From the IMG/VR virus record IMGVR_UViG_3300008262_000013: DNA of 64,000 nucleotides. One strand, given 5' to 3'. The translations under genes were made by a program, and so were the position numbers. This document shows positions 3 to 5,559 of the stretch, piece after piece. The stretch's first letter is position 1. The number at the start of each line of letters is the position of its first letter. The notes beneath the pieces were generated by a model. It ran no database searches. It was given only the letters and a program-made list of their open reading frames with translations, and was not told where the DNA came from. This DNA comes from a virus. Lineage: Duplodnaviria > Caudoviricetes.

Positions 3-557
3 ACTGAAAGTGGTATTGTACAAGAAGAAAAGATTGAACCTTTAACTGTATTTGATGATAGACATCCTTTTCTGAATACAGAATTGCCCGAATATACAGA
101 ACAACTACCGAATAAACGTATGACTACTTTAATTAAAAGATTGAAGATGACTATGAAACTTTATGGTGGTATAGGTCTTTCGGCTAATCAGTGTGGTTTA
201 AAAGATCGTGTATTTGTTATGGGTACAGATCAGTTTCAGATTGCATGTATCAACCCTAAAGTTTTGGAAGTGTCTGAAGAAATTATTAAAGATGTGGAAG
301 GTTGTCTTTCTTTTCCAGCAATGTTTATGAAAATTGAAAGACCTAAATCCGTATTTGCTGAATTTACGGATGAAAACGGACAAGTTCATCAAGAATGGTT
401 TGATGGTTTAACTGCAAGATGTTTCTTACATGAAACTGATCATATGAATGGTATCAAGTATACAAAGTATGTTGGTCCAGTGGCTTTAAAAATGGCCAAA
501 CAAAAACAATTGAAAAAAATTAAAACTGTGAAAAGAAAATTGAAAAATGTCGTATAG
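3..557 (+). CDS. def: Peptide deformylase (5' end runs off the window; frame is open from nt 3)
   Basis: Motifs GIGLSANQCG, EGCLS and HETDHMNG; no stop codon upstream of the called TTG at 84. Confidence 0.93.
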   Translation, partial: TESGIVQEEKIEPLTVFDDRHPFLNTELPEYTEQLPNKRMTTLIKRLKMTMKLYGGIGLSANQCGLKDRVFVMGTDQFQIACINPKVLEVSEEIIKDVEGCLSFPAMFMKIERPKSVFAEFTDENGQVHQEWFDGLTARCFLHETDHMNGIKYTKYVGPVALKMAKQKQLKKIKTVKRKLKNVV

Positions 558-1830
558 TTTTGATCCTAAAGATGATGTAGAAACTCAGTGGAAAAAATGG
601 CAAGAACATAATCCACCAGAATCTTTTACGCATGTAGACGAAAAAGAATTGTGTGAGAAAACGATTGAAGAACTCACATATGTTTCGGCTATGGATGTAA
701 AAGAATATACTTTATTTCAAAAGTGGTGTGAAGTGCAAGATAAATTTCCTACAGAAATCGTAAATGATTTGTGGGAAGGTGAAAAGAAAGTACTTAAAGA
801 TGAAAAACAAAGGCGTGCAATTGAAGAAATAAAATCCAATATTTGGATGCCTAATAGTCCTGAAGATTATTTGACACTTGAACCTGAATTACTTTACACA
901 AGTAAACAAGATGATCTGCCAGAATTGTGGAATACCATAAGAACATTTTCTTCTACGATGAAGAATAATAGTAATATTGGACGCAATTTGAATTTTGTTG
1001 TAAGAGATAAAGTAACAAAAAAATACCTAGGTGTTATCTGTATTAGTTCAGACTTTCTTGATTTGACACCAAGAGATAATTTCATTGGGTGGTCGAGAGA
1101 ATTAAAAACACAAGGTGGTATGATTAACCACACAGCCATCGGATCAACGATTGTACCTTTACAACCATTGGGATATAATTATGTTGGTGGCAAATTGCTT
1201 GCTCTGTTGTGCTTATCCGATCCTGTACAAGAGTTGTGGGAAAAACTTTACGGTGATAAGTTAGTTTCCGTAACAACTACTTCACTTTATGGAAAAACAA
1301 AAGCAGGAGGATTATCACAATATGATAATCTAGATTATTGGCAATCGATGGGATTTACATCAGGTTCAGTTTCTTTTGAACCGCTTGCTGATACACGTTA
1401 TATGATTCGTGATTGGTTAAAAGAAAATCATACACGTAAATACTTTGAATGGTACATAGCAAAGAAACCTTCTGGTCAGCCACATAAACGGGATCATAAG
1501 AATCGTTCATTGAATTTTACATATTCTCAATTGAACATACCAAAAGAGTTAATTCGTTCTGAACATGCAAGAGGAATTTATTTCTCACCACTATATGATA
1601 ATTCATGTGAGTTTCTCCGCGGCGAACATGACGGCAAAGATATGAAAAAACTCTTTGATACAAGTGTAGAGAGCCTAAGTAGTATATGGAAAACAAAACA
1701 TGCTAAGCCAAGAATTAAACAATTGGTAAAGAAAGATAAAGTTTCCTACGATACCCTGTTTTATGACGATCTTATCTATTTGACATGGCAAGAAACAAAA
1801 GATAAATATTTGCCGCAAGTGGGTCGATAA
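547..1830 (+). CDS. DUF4338 / DruA-like protein with predicted GNAT (Mom-like) topology
   Basis: FVVRD..YLGVICISS..RDNFIGW..STIVPLQPLGYNYVGGKLLALLC..VTTTSLYG..SQYD pattern; paralogous to 21609..22724. Confidence 0.65.
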   Translation: MSYSFDPKDDVETQWKKWQEHNPPESFTHVDEKELCEKTIEELTYVSAMDVKEYTLFQKWCEVQDKFPTEIVNDLWEGEKKVLKDEKQRRAIEEIKSNIWMPNSPEDYLTLEPELLYTSKQDDLPELWNTIRTFSSTMKNNSNIGRNLNFVVRDKVTKKYLGVICISSDFLDLTPRDNFIGWSRELKTQGGMINHTAIGSTIVPLQPLGYNYVGGKLLALLCLSDPVQELWEKLYGDKLVSVTTTSLYGKTKAGGLSQYDNLDYWQSMGFTSGSVSFEPLADTRYMIRDWLKENHTRKYFEWYIAKKPSGQPHKRDHKNRSLNFTYSQLNIPKELIRSEHARGIYFSPLYDNSCEFLRGEHDGKDMKKLFDTSVESLSSIWKTKHAKPRIKQLVKKDKVSYDTLFYDDLIYLTWQETKDKYLPQVGR

Positions 1831-1832
1831 TC

Positions 1833-1841
1833 TGTTATAAT
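1833..1841 (+). promoter_or_regulatory. Extended -10 sigma70-type promoter upstream of the tRNA-like RNA
   Basis: TGtTATAAT at 1833-1841, 9 nt before the cloverleaf; no canonical -35 at 17 bp. Confidence 0.55.
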
Positions 1842-1850
1842 GTCCTTAAT

Positions 1851-1913
1851 GCGGTGAGTCCGAGACAACCTTCCCCCGAAGGCAGATAGGTTTAACTCCT
1901 ATGAACCGCTCCA
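1851..1913 (+). ncRNA. 63-nt tRNA-Gly-like mini-cloverleaf RNA with encoded CCA (non-canonical)
   Basis: GCGGT/ACCGC acceptor stem plus tandem G.A pairs; discriminator T1910 then CCA; T-arm ATAGG-TTTAACT-CCTAT; CCTTC-CCCC-GAAGG hairpin; 3-bp GTC/GAC D-like arm. Confidence 0.7.
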
Positions 1914-2008: not shown

Positions 2009-4279
2009 ATGACAACATTTACTACCGAATCTAAATCTCAGCTGGCGAAACTCCTTGCTACCGAGAATTTACGTATTGAACACCAAAAAATTAGAACAGC
2101 TCGATTCGATCCAAAGAATCGGGTTTTGTATTGCCCTATTTGGAAAAATATGAGCGGTGTACTTTACGACCTTTTGATGGGTCATGAAGTCGGTCACGCT
2201 CTTTACACTCCCGCTCAAGGTTGGCATGATGCCGTTTGTGATAAAGGCCGAAACTATAAAGGCTTTTTGAATGTGGTCGAAGATGCCCGTATTGAGAAAA
2301 AAATCAAACGTAAGTATCCTGGTATTCGTAAATCTTTTATTGAAGCTTATCAAGATTTGATGAGTCGAGATTTTTTCGAATTGAAAGACCGTGACATTAA
2401 TGAAATGTCCTTTATCAATCGATTGAATCTTTTTACAAAATCAAGTGGTACGATGGATATTCAATTCACCGCTTTTGAAGAAAAGTTGGTTGAAGAAGTG
2501 TTGCGCTGTGAAACTTGGGAAGATGTTTTACGTGTTACCGGTCTTGTTTGGGATTATTCCAAAGAAGAACAATTTGAAATGGCTGAAGAAGAATTTACTT
2601 TCGAATTACATTCTTTTAGTGAAGATGGTGAGTCTGACGATTCGGATGATTCTGATTTCGAATATGATTTTAGTGATGAATCGACAGAACAGAATGACAA
2701 TGAATCCGAAGGATCGGACGAATCTAAACAGATGCATGGCACTGCCAATAACGAAGATGAAACGGATGATGGTGAAGAAAACTTTACGCAGATAAATCGT
2801 TTTAAACAATCGGCTTTATCTAAAGAAGATCAACTTGTTACTTTTGAACCTACTTGTGAAACGGATGATGCGTTTCGTAGAAAAGAAAATGAACTTCTTG
2901 ATGAAAAATGCAAAGACTATCTTTATGTAACAACACCTGAGCCTAATCTTAAAAATATTGTTACTCCAGCAAAGCGAGTAAACGAATTGTTGGCAGCACA
3001 TTATACTGATGAATCTAAAAAGAATGAGCAATACAATAGTTTCAAAAGTCGTAATGATCGATACATTTCTTTACTTGCAAAAGAATTTGAAATGAAGAAA
3101 GCCGCATCGTGTTATGCTAAGGCTAAAACTTCAAACACTGGTGATATTGATGTATCCAAATTGTACAAGTATCAAATTGACGATACTATCTTTAAGAAAA
3201 CTATGAGAATACCGAAAGGTAAATCACACGGACTTATTTTGCTTCTGGATAAATCTGGATCAATGTCAAATAATTTGAGAGGTTCGATTGAACAGATTTT
3301 GATACTGACCTCATTTTGCCGCAAAGTGAATATTCCTTTTATAGTTTATGGTTTTGGTAATAACACTACGGCTTTCTTTGAAGATCAAGGTGGATATAAT
3401 GAATCACTAAATCATAAAATTCGTGATTCGTTTTCTAAAGGAGAAGGTGAACTCTGTTTAGATGGTGTATTTTTGCGTGAGTATCTAAATTCAAAAATGT
3501 CAAACTCTGAATTTACCAAATCAACCAAAAATCTGGTTTCTTTGATGAATGGATTCGGTGGTCCAAATAGATATTCTAGAAATTATCCTATTTCAGAAGG
3601 ACTCTCAAATACACCCATGGTCGAAGCGATTGTTGCAGTTGAAAAGATTACACAAGATTTCAGAAAAGTGAATAATCTGGATATTGTGAATTTGGTTATC
3701 GTTCACGATGGTGATGCTGATACAATCAACACGGTTCATACCTATAATGATGCAAATCCAAAAAACTATAGACACCTAAGTCCATCTTATAATAACATTT
3801 ATTTGCGTGACAAAAAAACTAAATTTGAAACGAAAGTTGAAAATAATGATGTACTAAGTCAAAATATTTTGAAGTGGTATTCTTATCGGACTGGAGCTAA
3901 AGTATTTGGTTTCTTCCTCACTGATGGAAGTAATAGTTCTGCTGAGAGTGCTGCTATGATGCATCACTACGAAAAGACTGATTCTAAAAATATATATGAT
4001 GATCCAAGTATTCAGTGGAACGAAAAACGATACAAAGCAAAAGAGTTGGCAAAAAAATTAAAGACTCAAAAACTTTTGGTTTCTAAAAAACCAGGATATG
4101 AAAGTTTCTTCATCATACCTGGTGGCAACAACTTGCAAGTAGATGATGGTGAACTAGAAATTGATACTTCCAAAAAAGTTACCGCAAGTAAACTTACCAA
4201 TGCGTTTATTAAGTTTAACAAAAAACGCCAAGTGAATCGGGTACTTGTTTCTAAATTTATTGATGGTATTGCAGTTTGA
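2009..4279 (+). CDS. vWA-domain protein (CobT-like) with N-terminal HExxH and acidic linker; partner of adjacent AAA+
   Basis: HEVGH, NVVEDARIE, MIDAS-like LLLDKSGSM...HDGD, D/E-rich spacer. Confidence 0.8.
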   Translation: MTTFTTESKSQLAKLLATENLRIEHQKIRTARFDPKNRVLYCPIWKNMSGVLYDLLMGHEVGHALYTPAQGWHDAVCDKGRNYKGFLNVVEDARIEKKIKRKYPGIRKSFIEAYQDLMSRDFFELKDRDINEMSFINRLNLFTKSSGTMDIQFTAFEEKLVEEVLRCETWEDVLRVTGLVWDYSKEEQFEMAEEEFTFELHSFSEDGESDDSDDSDFEYDFSDESTEQNDNESEGSDESKQMHGTANNEDETDDGEENFTQINRFKQSALSKEDQLVTFEPTCETDDAFRRKENELLDEKCKDYLYVTTPEPNLKNIVTPAKRVNELLAAHYTDESKKNEQYNSFKSRNDRYISLLAKEFEMKKAASCYAKAKTSNTGDIDVSKLYKYQIDDTIFKKTMRIPKGKSHGLILLLDKSGSMSNNLRGSIEQILILTSFCRKVNIPFIVYGFGNNTTAFFEDQGGYNESLNHKIRDSFSKGEGELCLDGVFLREYLNSKMSNSEFTKSTKNLVSLMNGFGGPNRYSRNYPISEGLSNTPMVEAIVAVEKITQDFRKVNNLDIVNLVIVHDGDADTINTVHTYNDANPKNYRHLSPSYNNIYLRDKKTKFETKVENNDVLSQNILKWYSYRTGAKVFGFFLTDGSNSSAESAAMMHHYEKTDSKNIYDDPSIQWNEKRYKAKELAKKLKTQKLLVSKKPGYESFFIIPGGNNLQVDDGELEIDTSKKVTASKLTNAFIKFNKKRQVNRVLVSKFIDGIAV

Positions 4280-4371: not shown

Positions 4372-5559
4372 ATGGCAAGTCGTAATGAAAAGCGTCAAAA
4401 GTTTCTGAATGCTCTTATCGCTACCGGTAAAAGTACTGTGACACTTGATGAAATTAAAGCTATTGCAGAAAAACTCAATATTGGTCAACCATACTGGTTT
4501 ACAAATGATGATGATAATCGTATAAAACGTGGTACATATAAAGTGCCAGGTGTTACACAAAAACAAAATGTTCAAACTGTTGATATGCAGGCGCAAGTAA
4601 TTCCTATGCAAAAAGTTGAAAACAAATCGAGCAATAGAATTTCTTCAATCGTTACTGATCTGGAAATTGAGAATTTGGTACCAACCAAATACAAAAATTA
4701 TGTTCCGTTTGGAAACTTTGAAGATATCGTTTCTATCATCGAATCAAGAACTTTCTTTCCTATTTTCATCACTGGTCAATCAGGTAATGGTAAAACCATG
4801 TCCGTTGAACAGGCTTGTGCTAAACTAAATCGTAAGTTTGTTTGCGTTTCAATGACACCTGAAACCGATGAAAGTGATTTGTTTGGTAATTTTATTCTGA
4901 TTAATGGTCAGATGGAATGGCGTGATGGTCCTGTAACCGTTGCGGCTCGTCAAGGTGCCGTACTCTGTATCGATGAAGTCGATTACGGTGCTCAGAATCT
5001 TTCCTCACTTCAGCGTGTGCTTGAAGGTAAACCGTTTCTTCTGAAAAAGAAAAATGAATTGATTGTACCTGCTGAAGGATTTACCGTTATTGCTACTGCA
5101 AATACAAAAGGTAAAGGTTCTGAAGATGGTCGTTATATGTTTACGAATGTATTGAATGAAGCGTTTCTTGAGCGTTTCCCTAATACAATGGAACAAGATT
5201 GGCCTCCTGTTAAAGTTGAGCGTAAGATTGTTGAGAAAGAACTTGCTTCTGCTGGTCGTTCTGATAATGAATTCGCTGAAAAACTTGTTACATGGGCTGA
5301 TGTTATTCGTAAAACCTTTGATGAAGGCGGATGTGATGAAGTGATTTCTACTCGCCGCTTGGTACACATTGCACGTACTTACGGTGTGTTTGGTGATAAG
5401 ATGAAATCAATCGGTCTTTGCTTGAATCGTTTTGATGAAGATACCAAAATTTCTTTTACTGATTTGTATACCAAAGTGGATGCTGGTGCTAATACCGAAA
5501 CCATTATGGCAAAAACAGTAGAAGAAACAATCATGGTAAATGAAGAAGTTCCTTTCTAA
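4372..5559 (+). CDS. cobS: CobS/MoxR-type AAA+ ATPase
   Basis: Walker A GQSGNGKT, Walker B LCIDEVD, ATANTKGKG, LNEAFLERF, ISTRRLV. Confidence 0.88.
   Translation: MASRNEKRQKFLNALIATGKSTVTLDEIKAIAEKLNIGQPYWFTNDDDNRIKRGTYKVPGVTQKQNVQTVDMQAQVIPMQKVENKSSNRISSIVTDLEIENLVPTKYKNYVPFGNFEDIVSIIESRTFFPIFITGQSGNGKTMSVEQACAKLNRKFVCVSMTPETDESDLFGNFILINGQMEWRDGPVTVAARQGAVLCIDEVDYGAQNLSSLQRVLEGKPFLLKKKNELIVPAEGFTVIATANTKGKGSEDGRYMFTNVLNEAFLERFPNTMEQDWPPVKVERKIVEKELASAGRSDNEFAEKLVTWADVIRKTFDEGGCDEVISTRRLVHIARTYGVFGDKMKSIGLCLNRFDEDTKISFTDLYTKVDAGANTETIMAKTVEETIMVNEEVPF

Follow-up and report, generated by a model that had tools for sequence, protein, structure and literature searches.

A miniaturised tRNA-Gly gene beside a DruA-family GNAT gene in freshwater T4-like phages: a candidate non-decoding glycine carrier

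Use of glycyl-tRNA outside translation has been described for a bacterial as well as for a phage system. In Staphylococcus aureus, non-proteogenic tRNA-Gly species feeding the FemXAB transferases lack G18-G19 and U55, carry a shortened anticodon loop and are excluded from translation (PMC13443448). The GNAT protein Mom of phage Mu transfers glycine from Gly-tRNA-Gly to N6 of adenine in double-stranded DNA; it accepts all three Escherichia coli isoacceptors, but not Gly-tRNA-Ala, and is thought to read mainly the acceptor end (PMC13219725). The present analysis concerns a tRNA-like element in a 64,000-nucleotide (nt) stretch of DNA from a virus of the Caudoviricetes (IMG/VR record IMGVR_UViG_3300008262_000013), which as a whole is called the window in the following. 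Here, a 178-nt intergenic gap, flanked by two genes on the + strand, houses a 63-nt miniaturised tRNA-Gly gene (mini-tRNA) just behind a gene for a DruA-family GNAT protein. The best reading of this element is that of a non-decoding glycine carrier dedicated to the adjacent DruA-like enzyme, to which, by analogy with the systems above, a probability of roughly one half is given. The parts of the element, with stem lengths in base pairs (bp), are the following.

1833..1841, + strand: extended -10 promoter element TGTTATAAT; its end lies 9 nt ahead of G1
1851..1913, + strand: miniaturised tRNA-Gly gene, 63 nt, with encoded CCA; 65.6 bits with the family covariance model, sole match in the 64-kb window
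1851..1857, + strand: acceptor 5' strand GCGGUGA, pairing with GAACCGC at 1903-1909
1858..1866, + strand: D-arm remnant, 3-bp hairpin GUC-CGA-GAC, without G18/G19
1869..1882, + strand: anticodon-arm remnant, 5-bp stem CCUUC/GAAGG with tetraloop CCCC at 1874-1877
1886..1902, + strand: T arm, 5-bp stem AUAGG/CCUAU with 7-nt loop UUUAACU
1910..1913, + strand: discriminator U73 (1910) and encoded 3' CCA (1911-1913)

In the acceptor stem, five Watson-Crick pairs (G1-C, C2-G, G3-C, G4-C and U5-A) are followed by a G.A and an A.G pair, while the variable region comprises 3 nt and the T loop retains U54, U55 and A58 with a U instead of C56. The canonical tRNA set, namely a D loop with G18-G19, a U55-C56 T loop and a 7-nt anticodon loop with U33, is thus not found in this RNA. 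All details from which the element had first been recognised in an initial annotation of the window, i.e. acceptor stem, tandem G.A pairs, U and CCA, D-like hairpin, CCCC-capped stem, T arm and -10 element, are present where it had placed them. As it had also anticipated, tRNA and RNA-family scanners pass the element over: ARAGORN reported 0 tRNA genes in the 64-kb window, and Rfam gave no match in the window at gathering thresholds and none at E<=10 on positions 1780-2020. The single window sequence proves little, since its fold is only mildly better than that of shuffled sequences (z -2.0) and the cloverleaf lies 0.2 kcal/mol above the minimum free energy structure.

Hence, the argument rests on relatives, whose loci were collected via the downstream protein as well as via the upstream protein. 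The resulting family comprises 86 distinct sequences, all of the form GCGG ... CCGC-U-CCA and 63-69 nt in length apart from one canonical 74-nt tRNA-Gly. From a plain MAFFT alignment of 28 relatives, RNAalifold returned the same four-helix cloverleaf with compensatory changes in 12 of 18 pairs, bearing out across homologues a fold that the initial annotation had read from one sequence; RNAalifold and pair counts agree on a 7-bp acceptor stem stacked on a 5-bp T stem with a 7-nt T loop. A covariance model built from this 28-sequence alignment matches the window once as well as the relatives, always on the gene strand. In three alignments, 93.9%, 94.1% and, in the MAFFT-only alignment, 90.7% of the pair cells are paired, compared with about 44% when partners are slid. 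Both-sided changes occur in 14-15 of 20 pairs, and the observed covariation score was reached by 0 of 500 shuffles. Because two of the three alignments had been adjusted to the model and contain related sequences, the comparison with slid partners and the MAFFT-only alignment carry most weight. This is a real RNA with selection acting on each of its four helices; that it is a selected derivative of tRNA-Gly is almost certain.

The pattern of change differs along the molecule. U73 and CCA are found in 86/86 distinct members, and acceptor pairs 1-3 are equally invariant (86/86). Pair 4 is G-C apart from one member with a compensated A-U, and pairs 5-7 covary, position 5-68 being U-A in most members including that of the window. 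Tandem G.A closure is confined to the clade of the window, while other clades mostly show a single G7.A66 mismatch. The third pair of the D-like hairpin covaries across the family (C-G, U-A, G-C), as do all five pairs of the anticodon-arm stem, with a loop-closing pair C-G or U-A. Four of five T-stem pairs covary, too, whereas G53-C61 is invariant. In the T loop, C56 is lost in the type of the window and U55 in the other main type. Upstream of G1, at 5-30 nt, a -10-like hexamer with at most one mismatch is present in 84 of 91 distinct upstream regions of the family, compared with a chance expectation estimated at about 20%.

The scanner result extends to the family. ARAGORN found 0 genes in 27 relatives' loci and recognised, among the family loci, only one canonical tRNA-Gly (locus L146); likewise, the Rfam tRNA model RF00005 does not match the 66-69-nt relatives at E<=1, while giving 67.9 bits for the canonical L146 gene. 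When 185,579 species genomes of bacteria and archaea were scanned for exact matches to two subtype signatures, no copy and no clue to the host emerged, which is not proof of absence. Within the family, tandem mini-tRNAs occur in at least ten lineages (e.g., L032:2718-2857 and L071:2726-2869), in which the first element has a CCC-type loop, while the second combines a UCC-type loop, in many cases carrying G33, with the T loop UGCGAAU.

Two observations trace the ancestry of the element. In L146, the slot of the mini-tRNA is occupied, behind the same kind of promoter, by a canonical 74-nt tRNA-Gly(UCC) according to both ARAGORN and Rfam, in support of a derivation from tRNA-Gly. Additionally, the family model weakly matches the phages' own canonical tRNA-Gly genes, which share GCGG..CCGC-U-CCA. 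The element is a descendant, reduced in size, of a phage tRNA-Gly gene. Bacterial glycine identity elements comprise U73, G1-C72, C2-G71, C35 and C36 (PMC9976931). The glycine acceptor identity claimed earlier for the window (U73, G1-C72, C2-G71, G3-C70) holds as an invariant of the 86 members, with CC kept in the loops: as aligned, CC is found in the anticodon-arm loop of 85/86 sequences, the 86th being the canonical tRNA-Gly(UCC). In the window, this CC sits in the tetraloop, at the position of C35/C36. Based on these sequence features, the mini-tRNA is probably charged with glycine.

Decoding is another matter. The 28 distinct sequences of the window's clade carry a CCCC or CCCA loop on a 5-bp stem whose closing pair alternates between C-G and U-A, so that the earlier statement of an unusable anticodon arm is upheld by a 4-nt loop with a covarying closing pair. 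In close relatives that share the D and T features of this clade (L154, L155, L169), 6-nt and 7-nt loops are found in which CC is retained, and many 7-nt loops in the family carry G33. Within the clade of the window, the RNA is thus very probably non-decoding. As the loop geometry drifts while CC is retained, this fits recognition by glycyl-tRNA synthetase (GlyRS) or a partner protein rather than codon reading. What has been kept (acceptor/T arm, U73, G1-C72, C2-G71, G3-C70, CCA and the C run) corresponds to what processing and glycylation would need, and what has been lost (C56, the G18/G19-bearing D loop and a 7-nt anticodon loop containing U33) corresponds to the needs of the ribosome. The complete 214-kb relative G001 has a cluster of 25 canonical tRNA genes at 9-17 kb, among them tRNA-Gly(UCC) and tRNA-Gly(GCC), while its sole mini-tRNA adjoins the DruA-like gene about 126 kb from this cluster. 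The cluster of G001 also holds tRNAs with anticodons CUA and UUA (L090:1501-1575 and L084:542-615; labelled 'Pyl' and 'Stop' by ARAGORN), and such suppressor-like tRNAs could serve stop-codon read-through or recoding in this phage group.

Around the element, the gene order is peptide deformylase, DruA-like gene, mini-tRNA, large peptidase-like protein and AAA+ ATPase, with protein lengths in amino acids (aa).

3-557: peptide deformylase (PF01327) gene, at the start of the gene order
547..1830, + strand: DruA-family (PF14236, formerly DUF4338) GNAT-fold protein, 427 aa, putative user of the RNA; stop codon 20 nt ahead of the RNA start
2009-4279, + strand: downstream open reading frame, 756 aa; homologues in related phages are annotated as peptidase, no Pfam match
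4372-5559: MoxR/CbbQ-type AAA+ ATPase (PF07728) gene, at the end of the gene order

Linkage to the DruA-like gene is close to complete. Among 112 distinct loci comprising the DruA-like 3' end plus at least 150 nt beyond, 111 carry the element just downstream of this gene, in one or two copies and at a median distance of 54 nt; the lone exception, L158, has merely 191 nt of downstream sequence. The linkage even survives a gap of about 550 nt between gene and element in four loci. In one of them, a 148-aa reverse-strand open reading frame, homing endonuclease-like by eye, lies inside the gap (L119:2462-2908) with the RNA kept beyond it, and the gap is likewise seen in three other loci such as L004. 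Conversely, loci with the peptidase gene and enough upstream DNA, yet without the DruA-like gene (L031/G003, L050, L064, L069, L070), contain no element. L031 still has the deformylase gene, and the space of the DruA-like gene is taken up there by another open reading frame of 523 aa; in the record of the 95%-complete relative G003, from which the DruA-like gene is missing, 23 tRNAs and no mini-tRNA were found. Canonical tRNA-Gly genes are nevertheless kept at other sites in relatives that lack the DruA-like gene. The element is kept across DruA-like divergence down to 64% identity. A link to the downstream peptidase or the upstream deformylase was considered and discarded, since in loci lacking the DruA-like gene these two genes are present but the element is not. 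In the pelagiphage Mosig, deformylase and DruA-like genes are adjacent, too.

The 427-aa protein itself matches PF14236 above the gathering threshold (77.5 bits at a cut-off of 27, E 1.3e-21, residues 111-359), a family, also known as DUF4338, that has been described as a GNAT domain (PMC10853773). An AlphaFold model based on a 55-sequence alignment (pLDDT, a predicted local distance difference test, 95; predicted template modelling score, pTM, 0.92) displays a GNAT core at about residues 107-371 together with an N-terminal domain and a helical insertion. Against the PDB, phmmer gave only a ribosomal protein at E = 1, and Foldseek nothing at E<=0.001 but weak GNAT matches; in PHROGs, the only match is a family of unknown function. 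An RG(V/I)Y motif seen by eye in common with Mom was not significant and has not been used. The Phold preprint reports DruA-like proteins of cyanophages recognised by their structure, and the record of a cyanophage homologue is annotated 'methylcarbamoylase mom', although this protein, too, belongs to PF14236. Searches of the accessible literature found no published function or mechanism of DruA, no link between DruA and tRNA and no described phage mini-tRNA.

Taken together, a non-translational glycine carrier is the best reading because the RNA is a tRNA-Gly derivative that has kept its glycine acceptor identity and given up decoding, and because a GNAT-fold gene adjoins it. In the initial annotation, such a carrier had been proposed alongside decoy functions; derivation, identity, non-decoding and GNAT adjacency speak for the carrier part, and the two decoy functions named there are not supported. 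In the proposed sequence of events, the RNA would be transcribed from its own promoter early in infection; the promoter-like sites directly upstream in 84 of 91 variants argue for such a separate transcript. RNase P would then remove a leader of a few nt, 3' exonucleases would trim the other end and host GlyRS would charge the RNA with glycine. The charged RNA would stay outside translation and off the ribosome and pass its glycyl group to the 427-aa DruA-family GNAT, acting as an aminoacyl-tRNA-dependent transferase in the manner of Mom or Fem. That the mini-tRNA serves as donor for its neighbouring enzyme is, by this analogy, about evenly balanced. Candidate acceptors are DNA, protein or something else. 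A DNA acceptor is suggested by the Mom analogy and by the DNA-directed nature of Druantia, though adenine in DNA as the specific target must be regarded as doubtful, and the examples of Fem and the L/F-transferase make a protein acceptor conceivable. With a donor of its own, the enzyme would not have to compete with translation for Gly-tRNA, a separation that the non-proteogenic tRNA-Gly species provide in Staphylococcus aureus.

Several observations weigh against this reading. The linked loci are all members of a single lineage of phages (64-92% DruA-like identity), and the adjacency is therefore partly inherited synteny, in which the joint absences could amount to only one or two events. The pelagiphages Mosig and HTVC008M have a DruA-like gene (60% and 57% identity, respectively) and no mini-tRNA genome-wide, and a cyanophage DruA-like homologue has neither mini-tRNA nor tRNA nearby. 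Since these marine homologues do without such an RNA, the DruA-like enzyme is not strictly dependent on a private tRNA. As to the protein, Mu Mom is the top structural match of the model, but is tied with ordinary acetyltransferases; judging from the model, the likeness would be one of fold only. No sequence similarity to Mom was found (hhalign probability 1%, best BLASTP E 1.5) and the Pfam families differ, the 427-aa protein matching PF14236 only and Mu Mom PF25680. With regard to charging, GlyRS of Thermus thermophilus additionally uses G10 and U16 (PMC9976931), which are not conserved in the family. Finally, contigs from three metatranscriptome libraries touch the 2-kb stretch around the element, none of them spanning 1851-1913, while one 174-nt RNA-library contig spans 1922 to 2095; as contigs assembled from RNA libraries may derive from DNA, these are uninformative on mini-tRNA expression.

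Other functions can be set against the same body of evidence. A decoy or sponge, offering its acceptor/T minihelix in excess to defence enzymes that attack the tRNA-Gly acceptor end and thereby shielding the translational tRNA-Gly pool, would make sense of an RNA that keeps exactly the toxin-read part behind its own strong promoter. Conceivable opponents are toxSAS pyrophosphokinases such as FaRel2, GNAT toxins (TacT, AtaT2) acetylating Gly-tRNA-Gly, and tRNA-tail nucleases. FaRel2 selects tRNA-Gly via G1-C72, C2-G71, G4-C69 and R5-Y68 and accepts minihelices (PMC11559606); the first three of these pairs are conserved in the family (with one A4-U69 exception), whereas position 5-68 is mostly U-A, in the window as well. 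Several GNAT toxins are reported to target Gly-tRNA-Gly (PMC9177977, PMC7470980). A decoy, however, leaves unexplained why the element adjoins only the DruA-like gene and is absent from relatives without it, and why CC is conserved in the loop remnant; besides, these phages already possess canonical tRNA-Gly copies. Such a function is judged unlikely, yet is to be taken seriously as a rival where the targets are toxins reading the acceptor end. Of the two targets that the initial annotation had named for a decoy, anticodon nucleases are improbable because there is no anticodon loop to cut, and for uncharged-tRNA sensors no support was found. The DruA-like linkage counts for a regulator or antidote, too, i.e. 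a substrate mimic that binds the DruA-like GNAT (or GlyRS) and restrains it or steers it off translating Gly-tRNA. The retained tRNA shape and acceptor identity agree with this, and an accessory or modulatory role would fit marine enzyme homologues managing without such an RNA; a pure inhibitor, on the other hand, needs no encoded CCA, U73 or CC determinant, all of which are features of a chargeable tRNA. Moreover, an RNA antidote of a GNAT enzyme is not known, and this role appears quite improbable.

The position between two same-strand genes raises the question of a cis-acting processing or stability element. RNase P and 3' enzymes would cut the tRNA-shaped module to separate or stabilise the flanking mRNAs, and the released RNA would have no role. 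Such tRNA-like punctuation is known in other systems. Processing, however, needs the acceptor/T minihelix only, leaving the glycine pairs, U73, the loop CC and selection on the D-like and anticodon-like hairpins unexplained; likewise, the conserved upstream promoter-like sites (84/91) point to a separate transcript, and loci without the DruA-like gene lack the element even though they retain the downstream gene. There is little to recommend this option, and it shares with the regulator that fewer conserved features are explained than by a glycine carrier. Ordinary decoding as tRNA-Gly, or quadruplet (CCCC) frameshift suppression of the sufD type, would be in line with the canonical-looking 7-nt loops of some members, e.g. 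CUCCCAA with anticodon CCC, and D-arm-less tRNAs can reportedly be made functional in E. coli (PMC11551756). Yet the 4-nt loop with its covarying closing pair leaves no 7- or 8-nt anticodon loop in the window's clade, loop length varies between 4, 6 and 7 nt among close relatives, the universal U33 is replaced by G33 in many members, and the complete relative encodes canonical tRNA-Gly genes. Decoding is accordingly very unlikely, and its sufD-like form was rejected since the loop-closing pair covaries and the loop alternates between CCCC and CCCA. Rejection by tRNA scanners and by the Rfam tRNA model is what a decaying, functionless tRNA pseudogene would show as well, but the family's 86 distinct variants, in which each of the four helices shows compensatory changes and the identity positions stay invariant, together with retention of the element down to 64% DruA-like identity, make this hardly credible. 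Both of the latter options are contradicted by the covarying tetraloop stem and the overall covariation.

The window derives from a freshwater T4-like phage with distant DNA matches to cyanophages and pelagiphages, and near-identical DNA was found in sequencing runs of 15 studies (lake metagenomes and viromes). Directly 3' of the RNA, at 1922-1980, overlapping palindromes are present: ACAAC-A-GTTGT, and CAGTTGT/ACAACTG flanking a second TGTTATAAT (1934-1942). The promoter of the next gene lies at 1952-1980 (TTGCCA, 17 nt, TACAAT). At the corresponding position, relatives carry TGTTGTTTCC..GCAACA hairpins along with T runs, and these palindromes and hairpins could constitute a small-RNA terminator or an operator. 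In HTVC008M (L094:3625-3660) and Mosig (L093:3317-3360), an intergenic GTAGAACA is followed by a conserved hairpin, GCTGTGCGA..TGACGCA. Here, GTAGAACA equals the D-region motif of one mini-tRNA subtype, and this arrangement may represent a decayed relic or a different RNA.

If these phages indeed use the mini-tRNA as a glycine carrier, it would be without precedent in two ways, as a natural tRNA derivative outside organelles that has given up the canonical cloverleaf and as a virus-encoded tRNA dedicated to a non-translational use. The element points to a class of virus-encoded tRNA derivatives that every standard tRNA and RNA-family scanner passes over, despite being abundant in lake viromes. 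A testable hypothesis emerges for the DruA/DUF4338 family, on whose part in Druantia the searchable literature gives no description. It can be put forward only tentatively that the DruA-family GNATs of these phages, and by extension those of type I Druantia, are aminoacyl-tRNA-dependent glycyl transferases, that one widespread freshwater T4-like lineage has evolved a private carrier without an anticodon loop, and that the product is a hitherto unseen glycine-derived modification of DNA (or protein). In this case, the Mom finding that DNA is modified with the amino acid of a charged tRNA would extend to T4-like phages. The RNA is also a candidate for a natural minimal substrate of GlyRS and tRNA-dependent transferases.

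Among shortened tRNAs, those of nematode and mite mitochondria lacking the D or T arm likewise have a shortened cloverleaf whose D arm has collapsed and whose T loop is altered, and they, too, escape standard scanners. However, they keep a 7-nt anticodon loop and decode with adapted factors, whereas the RNA of the window has no anticodon loop; the phage RNA, moreover, coexists with a full canonical tRNA set in relatives. Mom (PF25680, PDB 8bv8) differs in using host tRNA, and the report describing it mentions no phage-encoded tRNA, DruA or Druantia (PMC13219725). Compared with Mom, the DruA-like neighbour, at 427 aa, has an extra N-terminal domain and a larger helical insertion. With DruA of type I Druantia it shares the Pfam family PF14236, although it is encoded by a phage gene with no other Druantia genes around. 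The closest counterparts of the RNA are the NP1-NP3 species of S. aureus and Staphylococcus epidermidis, donors for FemX/A/B, which are extra tRNA-Gly species beside the translational ones, charged by GlyRS, weakly bound by EF-Tu and used by GNAT-fold transferases. Judged against the canonical genes of G001, the phage RNA is in the same way an extra tRNA-Gly beside translational isoacceptors, with D/T-loop partners lost and the anticodon loop shortened; the same losses have been taken further in the phage family. While the staphylococcal species are full-size, recognised by scanners and equipped with a UCC anticodon, the phage RNA is virus-encoded, 63 nt long and left with no more than a 3-bp D hairpin plus a loop of 4 nt; the GNAT gene linked to it belongs to another family (PF14236), and its protein would use the RNA as donor. 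By analogy, the phage RNA would work most like the staphylococcal non-proteogenic tRNA-Gly, and its evolution would be convergent with that of these cell-wall tRNA-Gly species.

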